From: an uncultured bacterium
Lineage (GTDB): Bacteria > Oederibacteriota > JAAXVQ01 > JAUVAV01
Direction of reading: 5' to 3'
NCBI GenBank assembly: GCA_963710755.1
Contig: CAVQBK010000003.1
Coordinates: 1,024,001 to 1,088,000, forward strand
Length of the DNA stretch: 64,000 bases
A program made the position numbers and the translations under genes. The number at the start of each line of letters is the position of its first letter. Positions within the stretch are counted from its first letter, which is position 1. Below are positions 12,852-63,131 of this stretch, in pieces. A model generated the notes under the pieces. The model made no database searches. It had not been told where the DNA came from and worked only from the letters and a program-made list of their open reading frames with translations.

Positions 12852-15128
12852 ATGGATCGGCTGACTACTTATTTGAAAAAAGTATTTCCCAACCAACAAA
12901 CCACGTTGGAATTTAAATTATCCTTCATTACCTCAGTGATGATCACAGGTATTCTGATTTTTACCAGCCTGGCCGTGATCACCAGCATTAGCAGCCAATT
13001 TGCCGCGGACATCAAAGAATATAAAACTGAAAACCTGAATAAAATTAAACAGACCTTGAAAAACTACATTGACATTGCCTACGCGTCCATGGACACCACT
13101 TATAACCAAGCCCGGGATAAAACTTACTTGGAAGATCATTATGGCCACCGTCTTCAAGATATTACGGACGCTGCCCAAACAATTCTCCAAAGCAAAGCGG
13201 ATGAAGCCAACAGCGGACTAAAAACCTTGAGGCAAGCCCAACAGGAAGCCATGCAGGAAATAAAAAAGATCCGTTACGATAATGGTACCGGCTATATCTG
13301 GATCAATGATATGGGACGGCCTGTGCCTAGAATGATCATGCACCCCACTCTGCCGGTGCTGGACGGCAAGGTTTTGGACGATCCCAAGTTCAACTGCGCC
13401 CTGGGCATGAAAAAAAATCTTTTTGTGGCCTTTGTGGATGTGTGTGCTGAGAAAGGGGAAGGGTTTGTGGATTACCTCTGGCCCAAACCCACCAAGGAGG
13501 GCCTGACCCAGGAACAGCCCAAACTTTCCTATGTCCGGCTGTTTAAACCGTGGGGATGGGTTTATGGGACTGGCATTTACGTTGATGATGCCGTGGTTGA
13601 AGCAGAGGAAAAAATAAAAAGCGACATTAAGAAAATGCGTTATGCTGGCGGAGTGGGTTATATTTGGATCAACGACATGGGACGGCCTGTGCCCAAGATG
13701 ATCATGCACCCCACTCTGCCGGTGCTGGACGGCAAGGTTCTGGACGATCCCAAGTTCAACTGCGCCCTGGGCATGAAAAAAAATCTTTTCGTGGCCTTTG
13801 TGGATGTATGTGCGGAAAAAGGGGAAGGGTTTGTGGATTACCTTTGGCCTAAACCCACCCAGGACGGTCTGACCCAGGAACAGCCCAAGCTCTCCTTTGT
13901 CCGTCTCTACAGGCCGCTAAAATGGGTCATTGGCACCGGTGTCTACATTGATGACATCAATACCATGGTGGCTAAAAAAGTCAAGTCCATGAGACTGCAA
14001 GAGTTGTGGCTTATTTTTAAAATTCTCATCCCTATCGTTTTAATCAGCGGGCTGGCTTGGTGGGTAATGGCCAATGTTATGGGGGATATCACCAGTACCG
14101 TAAAAGCTATGGTGGTCAAACTTAAGCAGATGGCGGCCGGTGAAGGCGATCTTTCCAAACGTATAGACGTACTTAGCGAAGACGAACTAGGGGAACTTGC
14201 GGAAGGATTCAACGTGTTTTTAGACAAGCTCTCTTCCCTGATTGGGTCTTTTAAACGGTCGGCAGGAAAGGTGGATCATGCCTCTCGGGATATGGCGGAT
14301 ATGGGCAAGGGGTTAATCGGCAGTTCGGACAGCTTGGAGACCAAGGTGAGCCAGCTCAAAGGCAATATTCAGGAGCTCAATAAAAAAATGGATGCCACAT
14401 CAGCTGCTTCGGAACAAACATCAGCCAATTTGGTCAGCCTGGACATGGCGGTTAAGGAATTTACCCAAACCATCACCCATATTTCCGGAAATGCCACCAA
14501 ATCCAATCATATTGCAACAGAAGCTGTGGACGTGGTGAACAATGCTTCCCGTAAGATCAACGAACTATTCACCCGGACCGGGGAGATCGCCACCATTGTC
14601 AATGTTATATCCGATATTTCCGACCAGACCAAGTTACTGGCTCTCAATGCCAGTATTGAGGCTGCCCGGGCGGGGGAAGCGGGCCGTGGTTTCTCCGTGG
14701 TGGCCGAAGAAGTCAAGAATTTGGCCGGAGAGGTCAACGAAGCCGCGGTCAATATCCGTAACATTCTGGGCAACATGAAAGGGTCAACCAATGAGTCCAT
14801 GCAGGAGCTGGAAAAGATTAATAAGGTCATCAATGAGGTGAATGACTCCGTGACCGATATCGCGGCTGCGGTTCAGGAACAAACCGCCACCACCATGGGC
14901 ATCTCCAATAATATTTCAGAAGCTGCTGACGGGTTGAATGATGTTAATGTTGCCATTGCCGATGCATTGGAATTCAGCAACAAAATTCACGATGATACGG
15001 AAGTGGTTAATAAGGAGAGCCATCATGTCATGGACCAGGGCAGCAGCCTACATGAACACGCCGATGCCTTGCTCCAAGTGTCGGCCACCTTGTTGAACCT
15101 GATCGGGCGATTTCGATTAATGGACTAA
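12852..15128 (+). CDS. Methyl-accepting chemotaxis protein with two tandem Cache domains and a HAMP domain
   Basis: TM-(YIWIND...HP...VDYLWPKP...GTGxY)x2-TM-HAMP (DELGELA); signalling tip [23 protein letters not shown]. Confidence 0.95.
13290..13950 (+). repeat. Intragenic direct duplication (366-bp offset) encoding the two Cache domains
   Basis: atgggacggcctgtgcc occurs at 13311 and 13677, followed by long near-identical DNA. Confidence 0.9.
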
Positions 15129-24527: not shown

Positions 24528-25250
24528 ATGACCAAAAAAGAAAAGGCACCAATTATTGTTATCACCGGGGGGACGGGGTCAGGGAAAAGCACGGTGGCCG
24601 CGGTCTTCAATAAACTGGGCGCCCGCTTGATTGATGTGGACCGTTTTGCTCATCGTTTTTTAAAACCCGGCTCACCAGCCTGGCACCAGCTCCTGCAAGC
24701 ATTTGCCGGCGTCAAACTGCGTCAGCCTAAATCCTTTAATCAACCTTATGCGCCGGAAGATTTTATAGATGCCCAACAGCAACCCCTGACCTCATTGCCT
24801 TGGCTGATCAATCAACAAGGGGTAATCCGGCGGGACAAACTGGGGGCCAAGGTTTTTGCCGACAGCGCTGCCTTGGAACAGCTGAATAAAATTATTCATC
24901 CCCGCCTGCGCAAGGCTTTGGACGCCAAATTGACTATGCATCGCCGCCTCAGCACCAAACCAGTGGTTCTGGATATGGCTGTCTATCCTGAGAAACTATT
25001 CCGCGGCTTGGGGGATGTGGTACTATGGGTGAGGGCCCCCGGAGGGTTACGGGCCCAGCGTCTGGCCGATCACCGCCGTCTGAGCCTGGAAGAAGCCAGT
25101 GCCCGCGTGCGGATTCAATGGAAAGATGATGAATTTAAAAAGGTGGCCAACTTTATCCTGCCCAACCTGGGCTCCGATACCGACTTGAAAAAATCCGCCG
25201 AAGCCCTATGGCCCCAGCTGCTGAAATTTGCCTACGATGGAGGCAAATAA
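24528..25250 (+). CDS. coaE: Dephospho-CoA kinase (with a ~30-aa insertion)
   Basis: ITGGTGSGKST, IDVD, KLGAKVF, LNKIIHP; follows polA. Confidence 0.88.
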   Translation: MTKKEKAPIIVITGGTGSGKSTVAAVFNKLGARLIDVDRFAHRFLKPGSPAWHQLLQAFAGVKLRQPKSFNQPYAPEDFIDAQQQPLTSLPWLINQQGVIRRDKLGAKVFADSAALEQLNKIIHPRLRKALDAKLTMHRRLSTKPVVLDMAVYPEKLFRGLGDVVLWVRAPGGLRAQRLADHRRLSLEEASARVRIQWKDDEFKKVANFILPNLGSDTDLKKSAEALWPQLLKFAYDGGK

Positions 25251-26719
25251 TGCAATATTATTTTGAAGAGATGCCTATGCAACGATGGCTGCTCTTTATT
25301 TTTTTAGCCATGACCTTTCCTCTGAATTATCTTCTGGCCTATTTTTTAAATGATCATGTTTGGCTAATCCTGGTTGCCTTCACACCCTTGGTGGGACAAT
25401 TGTTTGTGTCCAACCGTGTGGGTAATTTACTTCTAGTGGTCAGCGTTCTTTTCTATACCCTTTCCGCCATGCGTTTGGAACATCCTGAACTCCGGGCAAT
25501 CCTGATTTTCTATATTCTGGTGGCCCTGCTGATGAGTATTTTCGGCTATTTTTACCGTCGGCGGAAAATACTGGAAACCAATGTTTTTGAAGATAAGCTT
25601 TCCACTCTGCATGAGGAGCTGACCCTCCAGCGAGAACAATACAAGAGTGATCTTATGATCAGTGTGGCGGATAGAAAAAAATTCGAAAAATATTCTATGC
25701 TTAACAGGGTGTCCAATGCCTTTAGTGCGGAATTGCAGCTGCAAAAATTGCTCGCTTCGGCGGTAAAGGAAATACAGCATGTGATCGGTCCGGAACGAGG
25801 ACGGTTTATCATTGCCGCTTCAGGCGTGGATAGTGACGAAGTTTATCTTCGCAGTTTGCCGGAACAAGTTGAGAACGACGATATGCTTCAAGACCAGTTT
25901 TCTTCCTGGATTCAGGAACATAAGGTCGGTCTGCTCATTGACGACACTAAAAATGATTTTCGTTTCCACGCCTTGGATGATCAAGACCGTGTCAGAAGTC
26001 TAATGATCGTACCCATGCTGATAGCCGGCCAACTTAAGGGTTTTGTACGGGTGGAGAGCCCTTGGGAAAACATGTTTAACGTCAATGATTTACAGTTGCT
26101 TACCATCATGACCGATATCATCGCGGTCTCCACAGAAAATGCCAGGCTCTTTCAGCAACAAAAAGAACTCGCGGTGACGGACAGTTTGACCGGATTGTAT
26201 CTGCGTCGTTTTCTGGACAAACGTATTGAAGAGGAGTATGGCCGATACCAGGCACATGGTACGGTCTTCAGCCTGATGATCCTGGATATCGATCATTTTA
26301 AGCATATCAACGACCGTTTGGGTCATATTGCCGGCGACCAAGTGCTCATCCAGCTGGCCAAATTATTACAACAGGAAATTCGCAGCATTGATATCGTGGC
26401 CCGTTATGGCGGGGAGGAATTTATCATTCTGCTGCCCAATACCTGGATTGAAGGCGCTTTGGTACTGGCAGAACGTATCCGGAAAAAAGTTCAACAACAT
26501 CCATTTAATGCCCTGGATCAGAGTCTGAAGGTGACGCTTAGCATCGGCGTGGGGGAATGTCCACGGCATGCAATTGAAGTGGCTGCCCTAATTAGGAAGA
26601 CGGATGACGCCTTGTACCGGGCTAAACGTAATGGACGCAACCAAGTCAGTTTGGCTGAGGAGCAGTCATCTTCAACACCGGACGCAGCCGGGGGGCTCTA
26701 TGACCAGAACCAGGCGTAA
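25250..26719 (+). CDS. Membrane GAF-GGDEF diguanylate cyclase
   Basis: N-terminal hydrophobic helices, GAF, TDSLTGLY, DIDHFK, RSID I-site, RYGGEEF; ATG overlaps the coaE stop. Confidence 0.92.
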   Translation: MQYYFEEMPMQRWLLFIFLAMTFPLNYLLAYFLNDHVWLILVAFTPLVGQLFVSNRVGNLLLVVSVLFYTLSAMRLEHPELRAILIFYILVALLMSIFGYFYRRRKILETNVFEDKLSTLHEELTLQREQYKSDLMISVADRKKFEKYSMLNRVSNAFSAELQLQKLLASAVKEIQHVIGPERGRFIIAASGVDSDEVYLRSLPEQVENDDMLQDQFSSWIQEHKVGLLIDDTKNDFRFHALDDQDRVRSLMIVPMLIAGQLKGFVRVESPWENMFNVNDLQLLTIMTDIIAVSTENARLFQQQKELAVTDSLTGLYLRRFLDKRIEEEYGRYQAHGTVFSLMILDIDHFKHINDRLGHIAGDQVLIQLAKLLQQEIRSIDIVARYGGEEFIILLPNTWIEGALVLAERIRKKVQQHPFNALDQSLKVTLSIGVGECPRHAIEVAALIRKTDDALYRAKRNGRNQVSLAEEQSSSTPDAAGGLYDQNQA

Positions 26720-28136
26720 CTATGGCATATTGGCGGTGGGGGTTGTGCTTATCAACAGCCTTACCTATATCAATTATCAGCAGGATGCCATGCTTCCGTT
26801 TTCCTTACTCTTTTTACCCCTGATCATTCTGGCCGGGTACTGGGAGGAAACCATTGGTGCTTTGGCCGTAACCGTGGTCTCGGTTTTAACCATGGTGGCC
26901 CTTAATTTACTGCGTATTGTCGATCCTAAAAACGCCATGGTGGCGGTTGTGACTTTTGGCATGGCTTTCGGTCTGGTGGCGCTTATCAACTATGACCGGG
27001 AACGCAAACATCGGCGCCGGCTGGAAGAACTTACACCCAAGGAACAGGAATTGGCTGCCGTACAGCAGCGCGTCAACACCATCAGGGAGCAAATCGAAGG
27101 TTATGAGAAACGACTAAGGGGTCTTATCAAAGTCTATCAGGTTACCAAGGTGCTGGGTGGCATGATCAAGCTAGTCCCCATGCTGGATGAAGCGCGCCTG
27201 ATTGTGTCCGGCATACTATCTTCCCATTTTCGGTCAGCCAACACGGAACCGGCGCGTCTGGCCATTTATATTCCCGACGAAGAATCAAGTGATTTTGTAA
27301 GAACCGGTTCGCGGGGGCTGGAAATTTCCGATGAGGGATTTCCGGAAAAAATCACGGCCAAACATTTGAAACGTTGGCTGGGGGAAGATTTGAATTCCGT
27401 GCTTATTGAAGATTTGCGGCAGGAAGAACGGTTTCGACCTTTTGCCGAACAGGTGACGTTTCGGGCCTTGATGGCAGTGCCGCTGGTGCTCAATGACATT
27501 GTGATCGGCGTGCTCATGATGGGGGCCAATAAACCGGCCAGTTTTTCGGCCCAGGAATTCAATAAGATTGAAGTGCTGGGGCGCCAAATTGCCCTGGCAC
27601 TCAAGAAGGTTTTTTTATATCGTAAGGTTCAAAAACTCTCGGTAACCGACAGCTTGACCGGGCTTTATGTGCGCCGTTTTTTCCATGAACGGCTGAACGA
27701 GGAGATTATCCGAGCCAAACGTTATCAACAACAGCTATGTCTGCTCATGCTCGATCTGGACCATTTTAAGGAGGTCAACGACCAATTTGGCCATCAGCAG
27801 GGAGACACGGTGCTGATGGAAGTTGCCCGGCGGCTGCAAACCGTGGCCGGTCAAACCGCCTTGGTGGCCAGGTATGGCGGAGAGGAATTCGCGGTCATCC
27901 TGCCCAACACTAGTGCCAAAGCAGGTTCGGAATTGGGCAAGATCATTAATCGTCATATGAAAGCTTCACCCATTAGTCTTGCCGGGGGCCAGGGCATTAC
28001 CTTAACGATTTCCATTGGTGTCAGTGCCTTTCCGGCCCTGGCCAGAGATCAGGACAATCTGCTGGCGTCAGCCGATCAAGCCTTATATCAGGCCAAGCAC
28101 GAAGGCCGTGACCGGGTGGTGGTATTTCAGGGTTGA
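26700..28136 (+). CDS. Membrane GAF-GGDEF diguanylate cyclase
   Basis: TM helices, coiled coil, GAF, TDSLTGLY, DLDHFK, RYGGEEF; no RxxD I-site. Confidence 0.92.
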   Translation: MTRTRRNYGILAVGVVLINSLTYINYQQDAMLPFSLLFLPLIILAGYWEETIGALAVTVVSVLTMVALNLLRIVDPKNAMVAVVTFGMAFGLVALINYDRERKHRRRLEELTPKEQELAAVQQRVNTIREQIEGYEKRLRGLIKVYQVTKVLGGMIKLVPMLDEARLIVSGILSSHFRSANTEPARLAIYIPDEESSDFVRTGSRGLEISDEGFPEKITAKHLKRWLGEDLNSVLIEDLRQEERFRPFAEQVTFRALMAVPLVLNDIVIGVLMMGANKPASFSAQEFNKIEVLGRQIALALKKVFLYRKVQKLSVTDSLTGLYVRRFFHERLNEEIIRAKRYQQQLCLLMLDLDHFKEVNDQFGHQQGDTVLMEVARRLQTVAGQTALVARYGGEEFAVILPNTSAKAGSELGKIINRHMKASPISLAGGQGITLTISIGVSAFPALARDQDNLLASADQALYQAKHEGRDRVVVFQG

Positions 28137-34145: not shown

Positions 34146-34174
34146 TTGACAAAATGGACAATAAAGACTATAGT
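34146..34174 (+). promoter_or_regulatory. Sigma70 promoter heading the chemosensory-like operon
   Basis: TTGACA-N17-TATAGT. Confidence 0.7.
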
Positions 34175-34342
34175 TTTTTTGTTAAATATTTGGATATAGT
34201 TTTTGGAAGGTTGCCAAGAGGGCGATATATTATTTTGTAATCAAAGTTTTAGGATAAAAGTATTTATTGTTGATTCTCAGTTTCAGGCCCATGGCCACGC
34301 AGTCCAAAGATTAGTACCTTTCAAGTCAAAGGAGGTCAAGTC

Positions 34343-34921
34343 ATGAAAACAATTGTCCTGCTGGGCATGATCTTAGGCTTGCTGTTTAGTGTTGGAACCA
34401 ATTTGTTGGTGAATGCCGAGGAGCCTAGAGCCGGGTCGTCACCAGCGGAGGTTAATCAGGATTCAGACTTTTTTCCCACCCATCCAGCACCGGAAAATTT
34501 ATTGGAAATAGAGCCAAGTACCCAATCTGTCCAAGCTGCTGTGCCCTCATCCGTGGAGTCCACCTCCACCGCCCAAGCAAAGAATATTAAAGCGGTAAAT
34601 CCCAAGCCCACGTCCACCGATACTATTATCAGGCAAAAAATTGCCATCGTAAGCCAAATAGACAATCATGAACTGATTACGGTTGGTGATGAAGTCTATT
34701 TGAAAACCAAACACCTGGCCGGTCTCGATTTCCACCGCCGTTATACTATTTATAAAGAGGTGGTGAAAGCCATGCCCGCCATCAGCAAACAACCGGTTCA
34801 CCTGGAGCAAGTGGTGGGCCAATTGAAGCTTTTGGATAAACGGCAGCCTTTGAGTTTGGCACGAATTACCACGGCCAGTGATATTATTAAACCGGGGGAC
34901 TTCATTTATATAGGACAATAA
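34343..34921 (+). CDS. Exported hypothetical protein: signal peptide, Pro/Ser/Thr-rich linker, C-terminal beta-rich domain
   Basis: AAGGAGG RBS; MKTIVLLGMILGLL...VNA-EE signal peptide; GDEVYL...RYTIYK...VGQLKL...ARIT...IKPGD. Confidence 0.8.
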   Translation: MKTIVLLGMILGLLFSVGTNLLVNAEEPRAGSSPAEVNQDSDFFPTHPAPENLLEIEPSTQSVQAAVPSSVESTSTAQAKNIKAVNPKPTSTDTIIRQKIAIVSQIDNHELITVGDEVYLKTKHLAGLDFHRRYTIYKEVVKAMPAISKQPVHLEQVVGQLKLLDKRQPLSLARITTASDIIKPGDFIYIGQ

Positions 34922-34922
34922 C

Positions 34923-35759
34923 ATGAGCGATATCCTGGACAGCTTTCATTTTGGGCGATTGATTCAAATGATCCGTAATGAGATTGGGTTGGATTGTTCT
35001 CATTATAAACCGGGTTATTTAAAACGTCGGGTGGCGGTGCGTATGCGCGCTACGCAATCACAGGACTATCGGGCTTATGAAAAAATACTGGCGTCCAACC
35101 GGGAAGAATATGACCTGTTGCTGGACCGCCTGACGATTAATGTGTCCCATTTTTTCAGGGATGTTACGGTTTTCGAGGAAATGAAAAAAAGCGTACTTCC
35201 CCGCTTGGCACAAAAATCCTCGGTCCGTATCTGGTCCGCAGGCTGCGCTAATGGCGAGGAACCCTATTCCTTGGCCATGCTCTTTGACAAAGAATTTCCC
35301 AAACATAAACATTGGGAGATATTGGCTACTGATCTAGATCCTAATTGCCTGCTCCGGGCCAAGGTAGGCCGGTACAAGCTCCAATCGCTGGTGGAAACAC
35401 CACCAGCGTACAAAGCCCGTTATTTCCATCAGGACGGCGAATTTTGGGATGTGAATCCTGAACTCAAAAAAAAAATAAAGTTTAGGGTGCTCGATCTGAC
35501 CAGCGATATGCCCAGGGAAAGAATCGACATGATCCTGTGCCGTAATGTGATGATTTATTTTATGCCTTTGCTTCAGGACCGTCTTTATGAAGGGTTTTAT
35601 GACATTCTCAAACCTAATGGTTTTTTAGTATTAGGTAAGACCGAAACCATGCTGGGAGAACAACGGCTCAAATTCGAGTCTGTTAACGGCCGGGAACGCA
35701 TCTACCAGGCCAAGGCGGATATTCTACCCGCTAAACACGAGGGCAGCACGCATGGATAA
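34923..35759 (+). CDS. cheR: Chemotaxis protein-glutamate methyltransferase
   Basis: TINVSHFFRD, RIWSAGCANGEEPYS, ILCRNVMIYF. Confidence 0.96.
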   Translation: MSDILDSFHFGRLIQMIRNEIGLDCSHYKPGYLKRRVAVRMRATQSQDYRAYEKILASNREEYDLLLDRLTINVSHFFRDVTVFEEMKKSVLPRLAQKSSVRIWSAGCANGEEPYSLAMLFDKEFPKHKHWEILATDLDPNCLLRAKVGRYKLQSLVETPPAYKARYFHQDGEFWDVNPELKKKIKFRVLDLTSDMPRERIDMILCRNVMIYFMPLLQDRLYEGFYDILKPNGFLVLGKTETMLGEQRLKFESVNGRERIYQAKADILPAKHEGSTHG

Positions 35760-36939
35760 TATTCAAAACCATCTCAACCTGGGCCTGGCCTTTACCCAAA
35801 CCAGGCAGTATGACAAGGCTATCAAGGAATATGAAAAAGCCTTGATTATTGACCCAACGGACACGGCAGCTTTGTTTCAGCTGGGGAGCCTATATGCCCA
35901 AGCCGGTCAATACGAGGTGGCGGTTAAAACCTGCCGTCAGGTGCTGGAGATGGCACCCGGTCATCAGCAGGTGCATGCCAAGCTGGGGATGCTCTACAGT
36001 AAAACCGGTCAATTGGAAGAGGCGATCGAGGCTTATCATCAGGCTATCAGTCTCCAGGCCAAGGATCCCTCACTGCATAACAGTCTGGGCGATGTGTATT
36101 ATAAATTAGGAAAAGCATATGAAGCCAAGGCTGCTTATCTTGCTGCGCTAGCCATCAATCCCAACCTTTCGGAAGTTCATTTCAAACTGGGTTATCTCCA
36201 CGAGAGCCAAGGTCATTTTGAAGAAGCAGTGGGAGAATATGAAGCTGCGTTACGCATAAATCCCAAGCATGCCGGCATTCATAATATTATTGCCAGCCTG
36301 AAAGCCAAGATGGGCAACTTGGAAGATGCGGAAACAGCATTAGGAAAAGTATTGGAACTTAATCCCCAAGACAGCACGGCCTTGCATCATTTAGGACAAT
36401 TGCTGATCAAGGGCCAGCGTCTGGAGGAAGCAGCGGAGGTGATGGAGCGCGTCTTGCAGCTGCGCCAGCATGATTTGGAAACCAGAAGCCAGTTAGGGCA
36501 GCTCTATGCCAAACTGGGGCAAAAAGAAAAAGCCATCCATCAGTTCCAAACAGTGCTGAAAGAGGCTCCGGAGGAAGGGCAAGTGCAGAAAATGCGAGCC
36601 TTTATTTATGATCTTGAAAATAACGTGGAACAAGCTGATCGTGCTTATCAAGACGCCATTGCCCACGCTCCCCAGGATCTGAGTTTGGTGGAAGGCCGTG
36701 CCAATTTTTTATATCGGGTGGGTGATTATCTTAAGGCGGTGGAAGCGTTGACCCAACTGCTTATCCTGGACCCCGGTCATGCCGAAGGTCATTTGAAGCT
36801 GGGCAATATCTATTACAAACAACAAGCCCGGGAACAGGCCCTGGACGCCTGGAAAAAATCCCTGGCCCTTGATCCTAATAATGAAATTTTGAGAAACAAC
36901 ATCAAATTTGTTGAAGGAACGCGCAATGGGGTACATTGA
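35752..36939 (+). CDS. TPR-only protein (about 10 repeats)
   Basis: Recurring 34-aa LG..Y...G..EEA...Y..AL.INP pattern over the whole length. Confidence 0.92.
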   Translation: MDNIQNHLNLGLAFTQTRQYDKAIKEYEKALIIDPTDTAALFQLGSLYAQAGQYEVAVKTCRQVLEMAPGHQQVHAKLGMLYSKTGQLEEAIEAYHQAISLQAKDPSLHNSLGDVYYKLGKAYEAKAAYLAALAINPNLSEVHFKLGYLHESQGHFEEAVGEYEAALRINPKHAGIHNIIASLKAKMGNLEDAETALGKVLELNPQDSTALHHLGQLLIKGQRLEEAAEVMERVLQLRQHDLETRSQLGQLYAKLGQKEKAIHQFQTVLKEAPEEGQVQKMRAFIYDLENNVEQADRAYQDAIAHAPQDLSLVEGRANFLYRVGDYLKAVEALTQLLILDPGHAEGHLKLGNIYYKQQAREQALDAWKKSLALDPNNEILRNNIKFVEGTRNGVH

Positions 36940-37570
36940 ACAGCATCAGGAAAAGTCTCTGGGCCAGCTGTTACTGCAGAGCGGAAGAATTAATCAAGAA
37001 CAGTTAAACCAGGCTCTGACCGAACAAGAGCGGGCGGCCGAGCCTTTGGGCAAGACCCTGGTGCGTCTGGGCTATGCCCGGGAAGAAGATATTTTACAAG
37101 TACTAAAAGGGCTGTTGGTGGTCACCTTCACCCTGGCCAATGAATACTTCGCTTTTGAAGCGCTGTATGTGCGTGAGATCATTCGCTATCAGCCCTTGAA
37201 TAAATTACCACGCATGCCTGAGTATGTGGAAGGCTTGCTGCGCCACCGGGAAGCGGTGCTGCCGGTCGTCAATTTGACCTTGTTGCTCTGCCATCGGACC
37301 AGTCCGGTTACGGAAACGACCCGGATCATTATTATCGAGATTACAGGTCAGCTTTATGGCCTGCGGGTGGATACGGTGGAGGCGGTCGTGCAGTTGCCCA
37401 TGAATAATATCGAGACCACGCCCAGCACCCTAAAAGGCATCAATCCAAAATTTATTTACGGTGTAGGTAAGGTGGCCAATCGTCTCCTGACGGTGGTGCA
37501 TTTGGGCAATCTTTTTAATGCCGTCAATGTGCCAACATTAGATTCCGGGAACATGGGAGCAAGGGAATGA
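36926..37570 (+). CDS. CheW-domain protein with an N-terminal MshEN-like domain
   Basis: SLGQLLLQSGRINQEQLNQALTEQ...PLGKTLVRLGY, then CheW (VREII, LPRMPEYVEGLLRHR, YGLRVDTV). Confidence 0.88.
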   Translation: MGYIEQHQEKSLGQLLLQSGRINQEQLNQALTEQERAAEPLGKTLVRLGYAREEDILQVLKGLLVVTFTLANEYFAFEALYVREIIRYQPLNKLPRMPEYVEGLLRHREAVLPVVNLTLLLCHRTSPVTETTRIIIIEITGQLYGLRVDTVEAVVQLPMNNIETTPSTLKGINPKFIYGVGKVANRLLTVVHLGNLFNAVNVPTLDSGNMGARE

Positions 37571-39780
37571 GCGAACCCGAAGAGGTTCAAAACAGCCGTG
37601 AATTTGAGTATGGCATCGATCAGAATGATGCCTCGGCGCATAATAATTTGGGTGTCTTTTATTACTCCAAGGGTATGTACGTGGAGGCCATTAAGGAATT
37701 CAAACGGGCTTTGGAGATTGACCATAATCTGACCCAAGCCATGGAAAATCTACAGGCGGTGAATAAACACACCGGTATATATGATCGCGCCATCGGAGCT
37801 TACCAGCGTGCTATTGAATTGTACCCTGAAGATGCGGATGCTCATTACAATTTAGGCAACGCCTTTCGTTACACCGGCCGTTATGAAGAAGCTATTGCTG
37901 AATATCAGCAGGCGGTGGATATCACACCGTCTCATCTCTTTGCCATCAATGCCTTGGGGTTGGTATACAAAAATTTAGGACGTTTTGACGATGCCATAAA
38001 CGTGCTGGTCAAAGCCATTGCCGCCTCTCCACATTTTGCGGATTTGCGTAATACCCTGGGTGAGGTTTATTACAACAAGGGTCTTTACGACGAGGCCATC
38101 AAGGAATTTACCACAGCCATCCAGATAAATCCCGATTTTGCCGTGGCCCACTACAACCTTGGGTTCGCTTATGGCGACAAAGGCATGAATCAGGAAGCGG
38201 AAAAGGAATTTGCCATGGCCGTGGAGATCAATCCCGGCTACATGCAGTCTTCCACCAATCTGGCCATCGATTATTATAAAAAAGGGGAAGGTGTCAAACC
38301 GGAACCTGAATTTTCAGTGCCCAAATTTCAAGAATCCGATCCCGCCGCAGCCTACCAGGAGATGGGCAAAGCCTATCGTCTTAAAGGTTTGCTAAACGAA
38401 GCGGTTCAGCAATATCAGAAAGCCTTGGCAGTTAAGCCTCAGAGCGCGGAGCTGCATAACATTCTGGGAGAAATTTACTTTGACATGAAAATGCTGGCCG
38501 ACGCTCTGACGGAATTTCGTAAGGCCATTGAGCAGGATGCCACCTTTGCCCTGGCTTATATCAATGCCGGCGTGCTATATCGTCATCAAGGTTTGTACCG
38601 GGAAGCGGAAGAACAGTTCAAGCGCGTACTGCATTACGATCCGGACAATGTGCGCAGCCATTATGAACTGGGCGTGGTTTATCACAAGCAAGGCAAGGCC
38701 CAGGAAGCCATCCATGAGATTGAATTGGCCATCAACAAAAATCCCCACTATGCGGATGGGCATTATCAACTGGGTATTTACTATTACCGTCTCAACCAAT
38801 ATGACCAGGCCATCACCGAATTCCGCCGTGCTATCGAACTCTCCCCCTTGTACAGCCAGGACAGCGAAGCCAATATTTATCTGGGGTTGGCGCTGGCGGA
38901 CAAAGGCCGGTTTGAAGAAGCCATTATTGAATATCAAAAAGCTTTGGCCCTGGATCCGCAAAACGCCGTAGCACATAATTCTCTGGGCATGGCCTATAAG
39001 AATATCAGCAATTACGACGATGCCTTGGAAGAATACCGCAAAGCCATCGTCCTCAATCCTCAGTACGCCAAAGCCTTTAATAATTTAGGTGTGATCTATT
39101 ATCAGAAAGGCATTTACGACAAAGCCATTGAGGAGTTCACGCGGGCTTTGGAAATTGATCCTGAATATCTGACCGCCCAAAAAAATTTGGTGGCGGCCTC
39201 CAAGAAAAAGGACATCTTCAAAGAGGCCATCGAACGCTTGCAGGCGGACATTCAGTCCAATCCCAACAATGCCGCAGCCTATTATGACCTGGCCAATGTT
39301 TATCGCAATACGGACCGTTTTGAAGAAGCCATCGAAGAATATAAAAAAGCACTGAAGATCAAGCCTGATTATGTCGAAGCTTGTACTAACATGGGATTGA
39401 TCTACAAGAAGCTCAATCAACCCGAGCTGGCGTTGAAAGTGTTGTTGGAAGCGGTAGCCATCAATCCCACTTACCCCGACGCTCACTATTATCTGGGGGA
39501 AGTGTATTTGCAAAAAAAATTACTGGATGAATCCGAGGTGGAATACTTGCGCACCATTGATCTGAACCCCAAGCATATCGAGGTTTATGACCGTCTGGCT
39601 ACCATCTACAGCATGCGCAACTGGTGGGACGAGGCTATCGCCACCTGGGATCACTTTATCCAGATCGCGCCTAATACGGAAACGGCCTTACGGGCGGCGG
39701 AGAAGATGCGCTCGGCCCAGGACTGGCTGGAACGATTTGAGTATTCGCCCGGTGCCAATCATCGCCGGCTGATTATATAA
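37567..39780 (+). CDS. Long TPR-only protein (roughly 18-20 repeats)
   Basis: Repeated AHxNLG...Y...AI..F..A...NP units; no catalytic domain visible. Confidence 0.93.
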   Translation: MSEPEEVQNSREFEYGIDQNDASAHNNLGVFYYSKGMYVEAIKEFKRALEIDHNLTQAMENLQAVNKHTGIYDRAIGAYQRAIELYPEDADAHYNLGNAFRYTGRYEEAIAEYQQAVDITPSHLFAINALGLVYKNLGRFDDAINVLVKAIAASPHFADLRNTLGEVYYNKGLYDEAIKEFTTAIQINPDFAVAHYNLGFAYGDKGMNQEAEKEFAMAVEINPGYMQSSTNLAIDYYKKGEGVKPEPEFSVPKFQESDPAAAYQEMGKAYRLKGLLNEAVQQYQKALAVKPQSAELHNILGEIYFDMKMLADALTEFRKAIEQDATFALAYINAGVLYRHQGLYREAEEQFKRVLHYDPDNVRSHYELGVVYHKQGKAQEAIHEIELAINKNPHYADGHYQLGIYYYRLNQYDQAITEFRRAIELSPLYSQDSEANIYLGLALADKGRFEEAIIEYQKALALDPQNAVAHNSLGMAYKNISNYDDALEEYRKAIVLNPQYAKAFNNLGVIYYQKGIYDKAIEEFTRALEIDPEYLTAQKNLVAASKKKDIFKEAIERLQADIQSNPNNAAAYYDLANVYRNTDRFEEAIEEYKKALKIKPDYVEACTNMGLIYKKLNQPELALKVLLEAVAINPTYPDAHYYLGEVYLQKKLLDESEVEYLRTIDLNPKHIEVYDRLATIYSMRNWWDEAIATWDHFIQIAPNTETALRAAEKMRSAQDWLERFEYSPGANHRRLII

Positions 39781-39822
39781 ATCGGGACGCCTGAATTTTA
39801 CAGGTGCAGCCTTGGAGAGACG

Positions 39823-40161
39823 ATGAAGTTGATTAAGTGCATTATTCAACAAAACAAACTGGAGACCGTCAAGCAGACCCTGTTGGAACAAGGCGTACAG
39901 GGCATGACGGTCTATGAAGTGAAAGGATTTGGCATTCATCGTGCCCAATTAGAGCACAAAGCTAGTGGCAATTACCTGGTTGAATTCCAGCCGCGGGTTA
40001 TGTTAGAACTGGTGGTGCCTGACGAACAGACCGCCTCTTTAATCAACTTAATCACAGCGGTGGTGCGTTCCGGGCGTCTGGGGGACGGGAAAATATTCGT
40101 TCTGCCCGTGGAAGAGGTGATTCGTATCCGGACAAATGAGCACGGCAACGCAACCATATAA
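39823..40161 (+). CDS. P-II family signal transduction protein (divergent T-loop)
   Basis: 112 aa; GMTVYEVKGFG, GDGKIFV, VIRIRT. Confidence 0.92.
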   Translation: MKLIKCIIQQNKLETVKQTLLEQGVQGMTVYEVKGFGIHRAQLEHKASGNYLVEFQPRVMLELVVPDEQTASLINLITAVVRSGRLGDGKIFVLPVEEVIRIRTNEHGNATI

Positions 40162-40190
40162 GCATACTCAATCAAAGAGAGGAGAATACC

Positions 40191-40562
40191 GTGGCATCAA
40201 AAATCCTTATTGTTGACGACGCATCCTTTATGCGCATGATGCTTCGTAATATCTTAACCAGTCATGGCTATGAGATTGTGGGGGAAGCCGAGAATGGAAT
40301 TCTGGCCATTGATGCCTATCAGCGGCTCAATCCTGATATCGTGCTCATTGATCTCATCATGCCCGAGATGGGCGGCATCGAGGCGGTTAAAAAGATCATG
40401 GAGCTCGATGGCCAGGCCAAAATTATTATTTGCAGCGCCATGGGGCAGCAAGCCCTGGTGGTGGAAGCCATGCAAGCCGGCGCCAGAGATTTTATCATCA
40501 AGCCCTTCCAGCCGACCAGTGTCGTGGAGGCGATCCAAAAAGTTGAACATGAGAAGGAGTAG
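40191..40562 (+). CDS. cheY: Chemotaxis response regulator CheY
   Basis: ILIVDDASFMR, DLIMP, CSAMGQ, DFIIKPF (Bacillus/Thermotoga-like). Confidence 0.92.
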   Translation: MASKILIVDDASFMRMMLRNILTSHGYEIVGEAENGILAIDAYQRLNPDIVLIDLIMPEMGGIEAVKKIMELDGQAKIIICSAMGQQALVVEAMQAGARDFIIKPFQPTSVVEAIQKVEHEKE

Positions 40563-40567
40563 CCAAC

Positions 40568-41209
40568 ATGAATGATCCCAGCGAAATCAATCAGTTCTAC
40601 CGGGACGCTTTGCAGGAACTGGGCAATATTGGGGCGGGTAATGCCGCCACGGCCTTGTCGCAAATGGTGGGACGGACCATCGGCATGTCGGTGCCCAAAG
40701 TCATGATCGTGCCGGTGGAGGAAGTGCCTGAGCTGGTCGGCGGTGTGGAGGAAATTGTGGCCGGCATCTATCTGGAAGTCTTCGGTGACCTGCCTTCGAA
40801 AATATTAGTTACTTTTCCCCATAAGAATTTGGTGCTCTTGACGGATATGCTGCTGGGCAACAACCTGGGGTCCCAAACCCTGATGAACGAGATGAAACTT
40901 TCGGCCCTTAAAGAACTGGGCACCATTCTATCCGGGGCCTATTTGAACGCCTTGGCCAAGTTTTTAGATCTGCGTATGATTCCGTCCGTCCCGGCCCTGG
41001 CCATTGACGTTATGACCGCGATTTTGGAAACCATCCTGGTAGAAATTTCCCAGGAGACCCAATACGCGCTCATGCTTCAAACTGAGATTATTGAAACCGA
41101 GACTAAAATAACGGGAACCTTCTTTTTGATTCCCGAACCGGGAACATTGGACACGATTGTGAAATCCATTGCCAAAGCTGCTGGGGTGATCGATGCCGGA
41201 ACGAATTAA
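40568..41209 (+). CDS. cheC: CheY-P phosphatase CheC
   Basis: DALQELGNIGAGNAATALSQM; second site SALKELGT. Confidence 0.93.
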   Translation: MNDPSEINQFYRDALQELGNIGAGNAATALSQMVGRTIGMSVPKVMIVPVEEVPELVGGVEEIVAGIYLEVFGDLPSKILVTFPHKNLVLLTDMLLGNNLGSQTLMNEMKLSALKELGTILSGAYLNALAKFLDLRMIPSVPALAIDVMTAILETILVEISQETQYALMLQTEIIETETKITGTFFLIPEPGTLDTIVKSIAKAAGVIDAGTN

Positions 41210-41690
41210 GGTTGGAATGGCTTCTTGGAAATTGGCCCGCGATGGTGACTTGCTGGTAACCTTTGGGTTGGGATCCTGTGTGGGGTTGGCGTTGTGGGAC
41301 AAGTCCACCAAGGTGGCCGCCATGGCCCATGTTATGTTGCCTGACTCCAAGCAAATGCATTTTCGCCAGGAAGTCAATCCAGCCAAGTTTGCCGACACCG
41401 CCTTGTCGATCATGCTCAACCGGCTGGAAAAAATGGGCATTCCCAAAGAGCGGTTATGTGCTAAAATCGTCGGCGGCGCCAATATGTTTGCTTTTGACAA
41501 CAAAGCCAGTCACTCGGGGATGAGCATTGGGGCGCGAAATGTGGCGGCCGTTAAAAGCATCCTCAAGGAGGAAGGCATCCCCTTGAGTGCGGAAGACACG
41601 GGCGGCACGGTGGGACGCTCCCTGGAATTTTCCTCAACCGATGGGTTGATCCGGGTACGCACCGCTTTAACGGGCGAGCGGGTAATATAA
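41193..41690 (+). CDS. cheD: Chemoreceptor glutamine deamidase CheD
   Basis: GLGSCVG, AHVMLP, KFADTA, GGANMF, IGARN, EDTGG. Confidence 0.95.
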   Translation: MPERIKVGMASWKLARDGDLLVTFGLGSCVGLALWDKSTKVAAMAHVMLPDSKQMHFRQEVNPAKFADTALSIMLNRLEKMGIPKERLCAKIVGGANMFAFDNKASHSGMSIGARNVAAVKSILKEEGIPLSAEDTGGTVGRSLEFSSTDGLIRVRTALTGERVI

Positions 41691-42227
41691 ATGTACGAGA
41701 AAAAGGAAGCCAAAAACGAATTTAAAATGGTGGTCTTTCGCCTTGGGGACGAAGAGTTTGGTGCGCCCATCAATCAAGTGCATGAGATTCTGCGGTTGGT
41801 GGAAATAACACGTGTTCCCCGGGCTCCCAAGTTTATTGAAGGGGTAATCAATTTAAGAGGACGCATCATCCCGATTATTGATCTGCGGCGGCGCTTTGAT
41901 CTGCCCATCAAAACGGCGGAGAATAAGCAACGCATCATGGAAGTGGAAGTGGACAACCAAATCTTGGGCATGATTGTCGATGAGGTTACCGAGGTTTTAA
42001 GGATTCCCGTGGATGCAGTGGAATCGGCACCTCGCATGATTGCCGATATTTCAGGGGAGTATTTGGCGGGCATTGCCAAACTGCCGGGAAGGATTTTGAT
42101 TATGTTGAATTTCGACAAAATTTTATCGGAGCAAGAAACGCTTCAGATTGAACAAGCGTCCATGGATAGCCTGCCAGGTGCCGTGTCACCGGGATTGCCA
42201 GAACATCAAAACCAGGAGGAGCGCTAA
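41691..42227 (+). CDS. cheW: Chemotaxis adaptor CheW
   Basis: VVFRLGDEEFG, ITRVPRAPKFIEGVINLRG, GMIVDEV. Confidence 0.95.
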   Translation: MYEKKEAKNEFKMVVFRLGDEEFGAPINQVHEILRLVEITRVPRAPKFIEGVINLRGRIIPIIDLRRRFDLPIKTAENKQRIMEVEVDNQILGMIVDEVTEVLRIPVDAVESAPRMIADISGEYLAGIAKLPGRILIMLNFDKILSEQETLQIEQASMDSLPGAVSPGLPEHQNQEER

Positions 42228-42592
42228 TGCCAGCCAGGATCCTCATCGCCGACGATGCTGCTTTTATGCGGGTCATGATCAAGGGAATTCTGTCCAAGCA
42301 GAACTACGAAATCGTAGGGGAAGCCAAAGACGGAAAAGAAGCCGTGGAATTGTACAAGAAACTCAAACCCGATCTTACTACCATGGACATCATTATGCCC
42401 GAGGTCAATGGGATAGAAGCGGTCAAAGAAATTATAAAGGAAGATCCCAATGCCTTGATCATCATGTGCAGTGCCATGGGGCAGCAAGCCATGGTGATTG
42501 AAGCGATCGCGGCCGGCGCTAAAGATTTTGTGATCAAACCATTTCAACCTCCCCGGGTGTTGGAAGCGGTCGAGCGCGCCTTGGCGAAATAA
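42227..42592 (+). CDS. cheY: Second CheY response regulator
   Basis: ILIADDAAFMR, MDIIMP, CSAMGQ, DFVIKPF. Confidence 0.92.
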   Translation: MPARILIADDAAFMRVMIKGILSKQNYEIVGEAKDGKEAVELYKKLKPDLTTMDIIMPEVNGIEAVKEIIKEDPNALIIMCSAMGQQAMVIEAIAAGAKDFVIKPFQPPRVLEAVERALAK

Positions 42593-42612
42593 GCCGGGTT
42601 GCTGGGCTCCTT

Positions 42613-43704
42613 GTGAACAGTCAACGTCTTATCCGAGTGCTGGTGGTGGATGATTCCGCTTTTATGCGTAAGACCATCAGCAACATCCTCAATCAAGCCG
42701 AAGACATTGAAGTCATCGCCACTGCCCGTGATGGCTTGGAAGGCATCCAGAAAGTCACCGATTATCATCCTGACGTCGTTACCATGGACATTGAAATGCC
42801 CAATTTGCAGGGATTGGAAGCTTTGGGTTATATCATGAGCGAATGTCCCACGCCGGTGGTGATGCTTTCAGCCTACGCTGCTGAAGGCGGTGAAAAAACC
42901 ATCAAGGCTCTGGAATATGGGGCCGTGGATTTTATTGCCAAGCCTTCGGGACCCATCAGTCTGGATTTAAATGTGGTGGCCCAGGAATTGGTGGCCAAGG
43001 TCAGAACCGCCAGCCGGGTGGATACACGGCGCCTTAAATTTTTGGATCTGGAAAAAATCCCCACTCTTCCCAGAAACATCACCATGCCGACCAAGGGTCA
43101 CAAGGCTGTGGTCATTGCCAGTTCTACCGGCGGGCCGCGCGCCCTCTATGAGATTGTTCCCAAATTACCGGCAGATTTTCCAGCGGCCGTGTTGATTGTG
43201 CAGCATATGTCCTCGGGATTTACCAAGTCCATGGCCGAGCGGCTTAATCTTGTGTGTGCCTTGCCTGTCAAGGAAGCCCAGGAAGGCGATGTCATCCTAC
43301 CGGGAAAAGTGTACATTGCCCCCACCAACTACCATATGGCCATCGTCGTGCAGAAAGATCAGGAAGTAGTGACCCTTAACCAGGGCCCGCCGCGCAACAG
43401 CGTTCGCCCGGCTGCCGATGAGACCATGGAGGCCGCCGCCCGTATCTACGGTCCTAATTGCCTGGGCGTCGTGCTTACCGGTATGGGACACGACGGCACG
43501 GTGGGTGGCCAGGCGATTAAGCGGCGAGGCGGTCTACTGTTGGCGGAAGACGAATCCACTTGTGTGGTGTTCGGTATGCCCAAATCCATTATCAAGACCG
43601 GTCTGGTCGACGGCGTTTTTCCCATTCAGGATATGGTTGATAAAATTATAAGCTATGTTACCATGTTGGGATCAGAACACTCTGGCAAGAGGAGCAGACC
43701 ATGA
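42613..43704 (+). CDS. cheB: Chemotaxis methylesterase (REC + CheB domains)
   Basis: VVDDSAFMR; catalytic triad motifs SSTGGP, QHM, GMGHDG. Confidence 0.97.
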   Translation: MNSQRLIRVLVVDDSAFMRKTISNILNQAEDIEVIATARDGLEGIQKVTDYHPDVVTMDIEMPNLQGLEALGYIMSECPTPVVMLSAYAAEGGEKTIKALEYGAVDFIAKPSGPISLDLNVVAQELVAKVRTASRVDTRRLKFLDLEKIPTLPRNITMPTKGHKAVVIASSTGGPRALYEIVPKLPADFPAAVLIVQHMSSGFTKSMAERLNLVCALPVKEAQEGDVILPGKVYIAPTNYHMAIVVQKDQEVVTLNQGPPRNSVRPAADETMEAAARIYGPNCLGVVLTGMGHDGTVGGQAIKRRGGLLLAEDESTCVVFGMPKSIIKTGLVDGVFPIQDMVDKIISYVTMLGSEHSGKRSRP

Positions 43705-44672
43705 TCATCGTCACCGGCGGAGCCGGTTTTATCGGCAGCGCTATGGTATGGAAACTAAATCAACAGGGGCGCCAAGACTTGTTAATCGTGGACGCTCTGG
43801 ATCAGAGCGACAAGTGGAAGAATCTGGTCAATCTCAGCTTTGAGAGTTATCTCGATCGCCGCGAGTTTCTGGAAAAAATCAACAATGACGCCCTGCCCAA
43901 TCACATCGAGGCCATTGTGCACATGGGTGCCTGCAGTGCCACTACCGAACGGGACAGTGACTATCTGATGCGCAACAATTACCAATACACCCGCCGTCTG
44001 GCAGAGTGGGCCTTGGGGCATCAGGTTCGTTTTATTTATGCCAGTTCGGCAGCCACCTACGGTGCCGGTGACCTGGGTTATGGAGATGATCTGCCCACCA
44101 CGCTCAAGTTGAAGCCATTCAATATGTACGGGTACTCCAAACATTTACTGGATCTGTGGGCCATCCGTTCGGGGGCTATCTCCCAGATGGCGGGCTTGAA
44201 ATTTTTTAATGTATACGGCCCCAATGAATATCACAAAGAGGATATGCGCAGCGTGGTGCACAAAGCTTTTGGCCAGATCCAGCGCCAGGGCAGCGTCAAT
44301 CTCTTCAAGTCCTACCATCCCGACTATGCCGATGGGGAACAGGTGCGCGATTTTGTTTACGTAAAGGACGTTGTGGAAGTGATGTGGTGGCTGTTGCAGA
44401 ACCGTGAGGTCGGCGGCTTATTTAACCTTGGTACCGGCCAGGCTCGTTCCTGGAAAGACTTGGTGCAGGCGGTATTTACGGCCATGGCCAAACCGGCCCG
44501 TATCGATTTCATTGATATGCCGGCGGGCCTGCGCGACCGCTATCAATATCATACTCAGGCCAACATGAGCAAATTGCGTCAGGCCGGTTTTACAGCTGAA
44601 TTCCAGTCCCTGGAAGACGGCGTGCGCGATTATGTACAATCCTATCTTTTGAATCCAGATCCCTATCTCTGA
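43701..44672 (+). CDS. hldD: ADP-L-glycero-D-manno-heptose 6-epimerase
   Basis: MIIVTGGAGFIGS, HMGACSATTE, YASSAATYG, YGYSK, FNVYGPNEYHK. Confidence 0.95.
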   Translation: MIIVTGGAGFIGSAMVWKLNQQGRQDLLIVDALDQSDKWKNLVNLSFESYLDRREFLEKINNDALPNHIEAIVHMGACSATTERDSDYLMRNNYQYTRRLAEWALGHQVRFIYASSAATYGAGDLGYGDDLPTTLKLKPFNMYGYSKHLLDLWAIRSGAISQMAGLKFFNVYGPNEYHKEDMRSVVHKAFGQIQRQGSVNLFKSYHPDYADGEQVRDFVYVKDVVEVMWWLLQNREVGGLFNLGTGQARSWKDLVQAVFTAMAKPARIDFIDMPAGLRDRYQYHTQANMSKLRQAGFTAEFQSLEDGVRDYVQSYLLNPDPYL

Positions 44673-44754: not shown

Positions 44755-46251
44755 ATGTCCAAACTGTTGGTTGTTGATGATGAACTGGCTATCAGGGAAT
44801 CGCTGGCCATTATTTTAGAAGACCGGGGCTACGAAGTGATGACAGCCGCTGATGCCGAGGAAGGCTGGTCGCTGCTGGAGCAGGCGGCTTATGATCTGGT
44901 CCTGACCGATCTGCTGATGCCCAAGGTTGATGGATTTGAATTCATAAAACAAATCCGTTTAAAATACGGGCGCCGTATTCCTATCATTATTCTCACGGCC
45001 CATGGAACCGTGGAGATCGCCTCCCTGGCCATCAACGAGGCGGTGGATGATTTTATCGTCAAACCCTTTGAAGTTAAGATCGTCACCGAAGCCGTACAAT
45101 ACGTGCTGCAAAAAAACCGGCGCTTGGCTAAAAAAACCCATCATGAAGCTGCCGGTAGTCACGGCAATTCCTCCTTTGAAAAAAAATTCTTTGGCCTCTC
45201 CAGTCTGGATGAGATTAGTAAACGCATCAAGGAAACAAGTGAAGTGGATGAGATTGGGGATACCTTATTCGATCAGGTGCGGGCCACCCTGAAACCGGAC
45301 CGGGGCTTGCTGGTGCTCGCACCACAAGATCTGCAGCAGTATCAGTACCAGCGGTTGTGCACGGCCGAGCGGCTGGCTTCAGGGCCGCCGTCCAGTGTGG
45401 ACCAAGGCATCCTGGCCTGGGTCCAAAAAAATCAAAAACCGCTGCTGATTGAGGACATGGTCAGCAGCAGCCAATATAGGGCCTGTTTCAACGGTATGCT
45501 TAATGCCGGCTCATTATTGTCCATGCCCTTTTTGCGCAAACAGCGTTTGTTGGGGGTTATCATTCTCTACCGCCAGCCCGGGGGCGAGCCCTTTGGGGAA
45601 GAAGACATGAAATTTTTGTCGGTGCTCTCCTGTATGACCACGGTTGCCCTGGAAAATCTTGAAATTTACGATGAGATGAAAAATTATTTTAACGGCACCA
45701 TTCGGGCCCTGATCACGGCCGTGGAGACCAAGGATGCCTTTACCTTTGGTCACAGCGCCCGGGTGGCCCGTTACTCGTTGATGATTGCCAAGGCATTGAA
45801 CATGGAGGAATTGATACAGCGCCGTCTCGAGTATGTGGCGCTGCTGCATGATATTGGCAAGATCGGTATTCCGGAAAACATACTGCAAAAAAAATTACCC
45901 CTGACCGACGAGGAATGGGCCGTAGTGCGTCATCATCCCGAATTGGGTGAGAATATTGTGCGGTCCATTCATTTTCTACCGGAAGGCGCCAGCGGCGTCC
46001 GTCACCATCATGAATATTATGACGGCAGCGGCTATCCCGATGGCTTGCAAGGCGAGGGCATTCCTTTGTTTGCCCGTATCATTGCCGTGGCTGATGCCTA
46101 CGATGCCATGCATAGTGATCGGCCCTACCGCAAAGGCATGGACCATGTCAGTGCCCTGGAAGAATTGGAACGGTTCAAAGGCGCTCAGTTTGATCCTCAA
46201 TTGGTGGACCTGTTCATCCAGGCCTTGCAATTAAAAGAAATGGTGGCTTAA
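44755..46251 (+). CDS. REC-GAF-HD-GYP cyclic dinucleotide phosphodiesterase
   Basis: LLVVDDE, TDLLMP, GAF segment, GHSARV, LLHDIGK, HHEYYDGSGYP. Confidence 0.93.
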   Translation: MSKLLVVDDELAIRESLAIILEDRGYEVMTAADAEEGWSLLEQAAYDLVLTDLLMPKVDGFEFIKQIRLKYGRRIPIIILTAHGTVEIASLAINEAVDDFIVKPFEVKIVTEAVQYVLQKNRRLAKKTHHEAAGSHGNSSFEKKFFGLSSLDEISKRIKETSEVDEIGDTLFDQVRATLKPDRGLLVLAPQDLQQYQYQRLCTAERLASGPPSSVDQGILAWVQKNQKPLLIEDMVSSSQYRACFNGMLNAGSLLSMPFLRKQRLLGVIILYRQPGGEPFGEEDMKFLSVLSCMTTVALENLEIYDEMKNYFNGTIRALITAVETKDAFTFGHSARVARYSLMIAKALNMEELIQRRLEYVALLHDIGKIGIPENILQKKLPLTDEEWAVVRHHPELGENIVRSIHFLPEGASGVRHHHEYYDGSGYPDGLQGEGIPLFARIIAVADAYDAMHSDRPYRKGMDHVSALEELERFKGAQFDPQLVDLFIQALQLKEMVA

Positions 46252-63058: not shown

Positions 63059-63131
63059 GAACATCGTCTTTCAAAATTATTTATATGATACCACAGTGGA
63101 ACAATTTACCCGGAAGACTAGGAGGCTTAAA

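Follow-up and report, generated by a model that had tools for sequence, protein, structure and literature searches.

How does a chemosensory operon signal when it encodes neither a histidine kinase nor a receptor? This question is raised by a 13-gene cluster in a 64,000-nucleotide stretch of DNA (here called the window; positions 1,024,001 to 1,088,000 of contig CAVQBK010000003.1, assembly GCA_963710755.1) from an uncultured bacterium of the phylum Oederibacteriota. A preliminary description, made from the sequence of the window, had proposed an atypical chemosensory system without CheA or a methyl-accepting chemotaxis protein (MCP), in which TPR scaffolds, a fusion of MshEN with CheW, and a P-II protein accompany the familiar che genes. 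We give a probability of about 0.5 to the reading that the cluster belongs to a split F1-type operon, whose likely target in the window's order is the type IVa pilus machine and not the flagellum, with a cyclic di-GMP (c-di-GMP)-binding CheW and an ATP/ADP-reading P-II as predicted extra inputs.

The 13 genes, all on the + strand, follow one another between 34343 and 44672, with intergenic gaps of at most 42 nt and six overlaps, and no kinase or receptor gene lies among them. The open reading frame (ORF) and domain annotation bore out the promoter and the gene order first described, together with the gaps and overlaps, and the motifs of CheR, CheB, CheD, and CheC were all intact by motif check. 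The features referred to below are the following.

34146..34174, + strand: sigma-70-like promoter consensus, TTGACA-17-TATAGT, 11/12 matches, the best site in the region (a consensus match only)
34343..34921, + strand: exported protein bearing a single TsaP-like beta-roll repeat (hhalign against longer operon-leading proteins)
34923..35759, + strand: cheR methyltransferase (PF01739 and PF03705)
35752..36939, + strand: TPR1, 395 aa, directly 3′ of cheR (Pfam TPR)
36926..37570, + strand: MshEN_N-motif-CheW fusion, 214 aa (NF053729 and PF01584)
37567..39780, + strand: TPR2, 737 aa (Pfam TPR)
39823..40161, + strand: P-II family protein, 112 aa, with Q39H and K58R (PF00543 and alignments)
40191..40562, + strand: cheY1 (domain matches)
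40568..41209, + strand: cheC, first copy (PF04509)
41193..41690, + strand: cheD (PF03975)
41691..42227, + strand: canonical cheW (PF01584)
42227..42592, + strand: cheY2, 88 to 94% identical across ten loci of the order
42613..43704, + strand: cheB, last gene before the ancestral operon break
43701..44672, + strand: hldD, at the break point (TIGR02197)
44755..46251, + strand: REC-GAF-HD-GYP, 82 nt after hldD
12852..15128, + strand: Cache-HAMP-MCP receptor (domain match)

For operon annotation, relatives' loci were compared with the window proteins by BLASTP, giving 33 loci (10 inside the window genome's order and 23 from other families). Genome-level counts refer to 60 genomes of the phylum, each at least 90% complete; the genome holding the window (3.44 Mb) is 98% complete.

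Only three CheW-domain matches were found in the window genome, namely, the two CheW proteins of the cluster and the product of the genome's single cheA. This gene lies at C3:837685-839721, about 220 kb upstream of the cluster, and encodes an Hpt-P2-dimer-ATPase-CheW protein with intact motifs. The suggestion that CheA might be encoded elsewhere was therefore right, and a genome-wide search turned up cheA, MCP, flagellar, and pil genes alike. Together with a second cheC, the cheA gene occupies C3:837685-840534, outside the window, and its 3′ neighbors (the second cheC, an FtsA-like gene, and dprA) match the tail of intact operons. Outside the order, the operon runs past cheB into cheA-cheC in 20 of the 23 loci, the other three ending at contig ends. 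The arrangement cheA-cheC-ftsA-like-dprA recurred in all six cheA loci fetched for this system from the window's order, and pilMNOPQ lies about 10 kb before cheA in three of these six and in the window genome. In a quick 37-row tree built from the P3-P5 domains only, the CheA of the window genome fell within one clade with the in-operon CheAs (SH-aLRT support, 95), and the second CheA of another genome (G007) fell far outside. Because intact operons outside the order continue cheB-cheA-cheC, and because the tail and the CheA clade match, the window cluster is, on gene order and phylogeny, the front part of a split operon whose break between cheB and cheA is lineage specific.

The break also accounts for what stood and what did not in the original picture of a system with no CheA or MCP. 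Neither is present in the cluster, but the genome has one cheA and six MCPs over the cut-off, one of which lies in the window; judged by gene content, these six orphan receptors can signal only through the single CheA. A CheA-independent or receptor-free module, to which the lack of a kinase or receptor gene in the cluster itself would point, has practically no chance of being correct: it is ruled out by the single cheA of the window genome, by the in-operon cheA of relatives, and by the CheA tree, and cheA is present in 46 of the 47 genomes with the MshEN-CheW fusion. A cheA missing from a cluster can thus reflect a simple operon break. At the break point, hldD lies directly 3′ of cheB in 10/10 loci of the window's order and in 0/23 outside it and is probably a passenger, judging from this distribution. 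The preliminary description had the order of hldD and REC-GAF-HD-GYP correct, but hldD is conserved only within the order and REC-GAF-HD-GYP follows it in none of the 10 related loci (one of them cut); both were rejected as core parts.

Two observations concern the tail of the operon. In the window genome and in many intact operons across families, the second cheC is followed by a gene for an FtsA/PilM-like actin-fold protein of 711 aa with ThiS-like C-terminal repeats (C3:840531-842666 in the window genome). Two near-identical loci of genome G014 (L105 and L106) have tandem cheA matches, a duplication or an assembly artifact.

Across the phylum, the accessory genes proved to be conserved together with the che genes, where the preliminary description had allowed that they might not be. 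P-II and TPR1 were each found in 33/33 loci, the MshEN-CheW fusion in 32/33, and TPR2 in 29/33, being absent from four loci of one family (f3); a full-length match to the fusion was present in 47 of the 60 genomes. TPR1 is a separate ORF after cheR in all 31 loci that reach cheR, i.e., no CheR-TPR fusion was seen, and a predicted CheR-TPR1 complex scored 0.00, which has no bearing either way. Identities between operon proteins fall to 30 to 45% between families, and loci of close kin are not independent. Searches of 201 genomes from one other phylum and of five single genomes did not reveal the fusion, which does not imply its absence elsewhere; an all-protein profile search gave three fusion-length rows among 150, swamped by multi-CheW proteins. 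The only groups to which named matches and Atlas clusters point are candidate division FCPU426, the label given to homologues of the fusion in their source records, and Goldiibacteriota, which comes from the clusters. The claim that the system is undescribed stands so far: in literature that did not extend to subscription papers and bioRxiv supplements, we came across no account of MshEN-CheW and none of a P-II gene within a che operon.

To which chemosensory class does the operon belong? Both auxiliary components of F1 systems, CheC and CheD, are present. The receptor C-arm measures 154 to 155 residues (22 heptads) by length estimate in four of the six MCPs of the window genome and 154 to 160 residues in 11/11 in-operon MCPs, which makes the latter 44-heptad (44H) receptors by the same estimate. 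Such an in-operon 44H receptor, with two transmembrane (TM) helices and a tiny loop between them, occurs in 11 of the 23 outside loci and is absent from the window's order and from one other family (f9). The nearest named CheAs from outside (42 to 46%) come from Clostridia, Actinomycetota, Methanothermococcus, and Syntrophothermus, lineages that we take to be F1, and the best NCBIfam model for CheA was CheA_Halo, below its cut-off. By CheC/CheD, receptor C-arm length, and nearest homologues, the system is of the F1 type. Its predicted workings are those of an F1/Dif-type pathway; with no in-cluster receptor in the window genome, it is not classed as a Dif member.

The proposed MshEN-CheW fusion is real, as both a motif match and the predicted fold indicate. 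The N terminus of the first CheW matched NCBIfam model NF053729 (a c-di-GMP motif) with 55.6 bits against a cut-off of 38, and the match was found in 18/18 fusion sequences at an E value of ≤0.001; the Pfam MshEN model itself gave no match on the window protein. The predicted structure (pLDDT, 82.5) consists of a four-helix bundle followed by a CheW fold. The four-helix part fits c-di-GMP-bound MshE (5htl) at 0.7 Å over 51 columns, with a Foldseek E value of only 0.016 for the small bundle. The MshEN residues G11, L29, Q32, and G40 are invariant in 18/18 sequences, and positions L10, L25, L39, L54, and L58 stay hydrophobic; in MshE, G11L abolishes c-di-GMP binding (PMC5013675). A further MshEN-type motif was observed in a 764-aa DUF4388 protein (L008:6765-9056).

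The operon P-II aligns without gaps to solved P-II proteins, and residues D88, G89, K90, R101, and R103 of its nucleotide loops (B-loop and C-loop), which take part in ATP binding, are invariant in 19/19 sequences. The T-loop is variable. The P-II residues that bind Mg and 2-oxoglutarate, Q39 and K58 (PMC3198391), are replaced by H39 and R58 in the window protein; across the family, K58 is mostly arginine (15/19) and Q39 is kept in 9/19. The preliminary description had seen in P-II an input for energy or metabolite status. The gene is real and its nucleotide loops are kept, but the canonical 2-oxoglutarate residues are altered, and the protein likely reads ATP/ADP more than nitrogen. Since the window genome has five other P-II genes, the operon copy is likely a dedicated one. 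These further genes, which include two nearly identical copies and two divergent genes lying side by side, are located as follows.

C6:193064-195627, C7:38522-38839, and C7:57094-57788: further P-II genes of the window genome

The link to type IV pili comes from the genes at the front of the operon. A TsaP homologue leads 22 of the 23 outside loci; the profile of these longer proteins, which contain two tandem beta-roll repeats, matches TsaP of Myxococcus xanthus (3jc8; E = 1.2e-22) and Pseudomonas aeruginosa (6ve2; E = 3e-15). The window protein, which has one repeat, and five members of its family were aligned by hhalign with the 22 longer operon-leading proteins at a probability of 97.1 (E = 6e-11). 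No LysM (Pfam) was detected in the 11 exported proteins scanned, even at an E value of ≤1. TsaP is described as belting the PilQ secretin via two beta-roll domains and as implicated in surface sensing (PMC11525922). In addition, in 14 of the 23 outside loci the operon is preceded by a gene for a PilT-TPR fusion whose Walker motifs are intact. The window genome has type IVa pilus genes, including pilM-type and PilB genes, and also a Tad locus. The early suggestion of pilus control has thereby gained the backing of the TsaP-like and PilT-TPR linkage. The TsaP-like gene is itself preceded in 22/23 outside loci by a gene for a small membrane-anchored TPR-like protein (L072:4252-4758 and equivalents), which was not found in the window genome.

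We then asked whether the operon is tied to flagella. The window genome carries a flagellar gene set, with no flagellar gene seen among the window ORFs scanned. FlhA went undetected in 8 of the 47 fusion-bearing genomes. For G059, in which FliG is present, an assembly gap is the probable cause; in the remaining seven, no FliG passed the cut-off (one weak match in G002), and no flagellin was found in the five tested. These seven marker-less genomes represent six genera and three families, all have cheA and pilM, and MCPs were present in 5/5 tested. One of them (G009) is 100% complete in eight contigs. CheY can act on motors without the FliM peptide. The N-terminal CheY-binding peptide of FliM (motif in PMC5677366) was absent from FliM in six of six flagellated genomes of the window's order; in the window genome, it was absent from both FliM and FliN, with no match among the ORFs. 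By its pattern, the loss of the peptide points away from a flagellar output in the order, although it is suggestive only. The window genome's fliM and fliN lie at L006:6431-7974, and the flagellar system of the order is divergent, its FliG, FlhA, and FliM scoring well below those of other families. Genomes G025 and G036 have similar second FliMs without the N-terminal peptide. FlhA and FliG without any cheA match were found in G017, G018, G021, G024, and G068, which apparently have flagella without chemotaxis genes.

Several findings weigh against a pilus-controlling split operon with c-di-GMP and P-II inputs. On the pilus side, the TsaP-like protein of the window genome has one repeat of two, its gene was found in only 5 of the 10 loci of the window's order (2 cut), and PilT-TPR is missing from the genome, whose only PilT-like gene (L001:2478-3545, next to a gene for a pilin) shows changes in the Walker B region; the PilT-like copies of G009 and G011 are also altered. 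With pilM present in 58/60 genomes, operon-less ones included, and so almost ubiquitous in the phylum, co-occurrence says little, and it is gene linkage that carries the argument. As for flagella, FlhA is present in 39 of the 47 fusion genomes, and outside the order all 18 FliMs that pass the cut-off have a variant form of the CheY-binding peptide (one of them strict), several of these FliMs being from genomes where the cheA of this system is the only one; flagellar output is therefore plausible outside the order. One genus has no fusion in its operon (L107), no receptor of the window genome groups with the in-operon MCPs (FastTree, 32 rows, long branches), and all genomes are draft assemblies related to each other. 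In the MshEN part, R9, R38, and Q61 are lost in 18/18 sequences, replaced by S, P, and L/M, and Q61A alone cost MshE 11.8-fold in binding (PMC5013675). A first-position K, L, or P and a single Gln loss still allow binding in PilF (PMC11731258), and MshE likewise keeps binding after such single changes (PMC5013675). On balance, micromolar c-di-GMP binding by MshEN-CheW is plausible, somewhat better than even odds.

If the split operon does serve the pilus machine, 44H receptors, both CheWs, and CheA would build one array, which CheR, CheB, CheC, and CheD would adapt as in Bacillus. Binding of c-di-GMP to the MshEN motif would, rather probably, change kinase output, and P-II may or may not, with equal chances, act on a pathway protein. 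A role for the TPR proteins in connecting the pilus motor with phospho-CheY or CheR is possible but doubtful. Flagella may be steered by this system as well in families in which FliM retains a CheY-binding peptide. A wider proposal can be made only tentatively and is unlikely in its entirety: the operons would form a distinct phylum-wide chemosensory class, with a CheW adaptor by which c-di-GMP acts directly on the receptor array, a P-II dedicated to energy state, and pilus-side hardware of its own (a TsaP-like secretin partner and a PilT-TPR motor), in which one CheA and two CheYs switch between swimming and pilus-driven surface life, or serve pili alone where flagella have been lost.

The pilus could also be the input and not the output. 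In a wiring of the Dif type, pilus state would reach CheA by way of the TsaP-like protein and a 44H receptor without a loop, and the output would be surface polysaccharide or c-di-GMP turnover. M. xanthus Dif controls exopolysaccharide (EPS) in response to pilus activity (PMC3945109, PMC4671073), the surface-sensing role ascribed to TsaP (PMC11525922) would fit, and DifA-like receptors are encoded in 11/23 outside loci. An HD-GYP gene lies inside 6/23 outside loci, a degenerate GGDEF gene follows several, and the window genome has nine GGDEF-like and nine HD-GYP-like proteins. These HD-GYP and GGDEF neighbors differ between families, however; no EPS locus or EpsW-like gene was linked in any locus examined, and the in-operon receptor is missing from the window's order and family f9, which leaves this arrangement improbable. 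Less probable again is ordinary flagellar F1 chemotaxis, with the extra genes as lineage-specific helpers or passengers and the non-flagellated genomes as products of recent loss or assembly gaps. F1 is a flagellar class (PMC10746217), the window genome combines a flagellar set with a single cheA, FliM outside the order keeps the peptide variant, and G059 shows that assembly gaps occur. Against this reading, flagellar markers were not found in seven genomes of six genera and three families, CheY2 stays 88 to 94% identical across the order, and the TsaP and PilT-TPR linkage is left unexplained; moreover, the peptide is missing from FliM and FliN of the window genome, and five flagellated genomes lack both the operon and any cheA.

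The interest of the locus rests on the conservation of its accessory genes, its retention without detectable flagella, and the TsaP/PilT linkage; the missing CheA is no longer distinctive. If control of the pilus machine by the split operon is borne out, it would give c-di-GMP and cell energy a direct route, which we did not find described, into a chemoreceptor array and would supply, alongside Dif, a second and independent instance of an F1-type pathway redirected to type IV pili. The small soluble parts (the 214-aa MshEN-CheW, the 112-aa P-II, and two CheYs) make these claims testable in vitro even though the organisms appear to be uncultured. Elsewhere in the window, a tandem pair of GAF-GGDEF genes (25208-28136) has intact active sites and no link to the operon, and there is a gene for a DUF520 protein (62991-63629), a family (YajQ) that we take to bind nucleotides or c-di-GMP.

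Individual parts of the operon can be set beside known proteins. With the MshEN receptors Vibrio cholerae MshE and Thermus thermophilus PilF (GSPII-B), the fusion shares the 53-residue tandem motif and the four-helix fold. MshEN fused in CheA and CheX has already been reported (PMC5013675); the fusion to a stand-alone CheW, without an MshEN_C subdomain, is not what the single mention of CheW in the supplement of that paper describes. P-II/GlnK proteins, including those of the GlnZ network of Azospirillum, where P-II influences c-di-GMP and aerotaxis (PMC7646526), have the P-II fold and nucleotide loops in common with the operon protein, which differs from GlnB/GlnK in its fixed place inside a che operon, its variable T-loop, and its altered Q39/K58. 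The relatives' TsaP-like proteins share the two tandem beta-roll repeats of TsaP (PMC11525922) but showed no LysM match and are encoded in a che operon, and the window protein is reduced to a single repeat. CheR-TPR fusions, such as WspC, mark non-flagellar pathways controlling alternative cellular functions (PMC3447774) and likewise tie a TPR unit to CheR; here, a separate gene of about 390 aa takes the place of the short fused domain, and the core is of the F1 type.

As a whole, the operon resembles two kinds of systems. Its likeness to Myxococcus Dif and Geobacter Dif-like clusters is one of gene content and receptor architecture. Shared are CheA, CheW, CheY, and CheC, the tie to type IV pili (PMC2577667, PMC3945109, PMC4671073), and, in relatives' operons, the two-TM 44H receptor with a very short periplasmic loop that is a hallmark of Dif-like clusters (PMC2577667, PMC3945109); CheD and CheR are further shared with the Geobacter clusters, and CheA is remote in the window's order. 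The operon differs in having CheB, two CheYs, and five further proteins that go unmentioned for Dif in the available parts of these sources, as well as in the lack of an in-cluster receptor in the window genome. With the F1 systems of Bacillus, Thermotoga, and archaea, it has in common CheC, CheD, and 44H receptors (PMC10746217), along with a CheA that has P2 and no receiver. Relative to these systems, it has two CheYs, two CheCs, and no FliY, is kept where flagellar markers were not found, and adds TPR1, TPR2, MshEN-CheW, P-II, and the TsaP-like protein.

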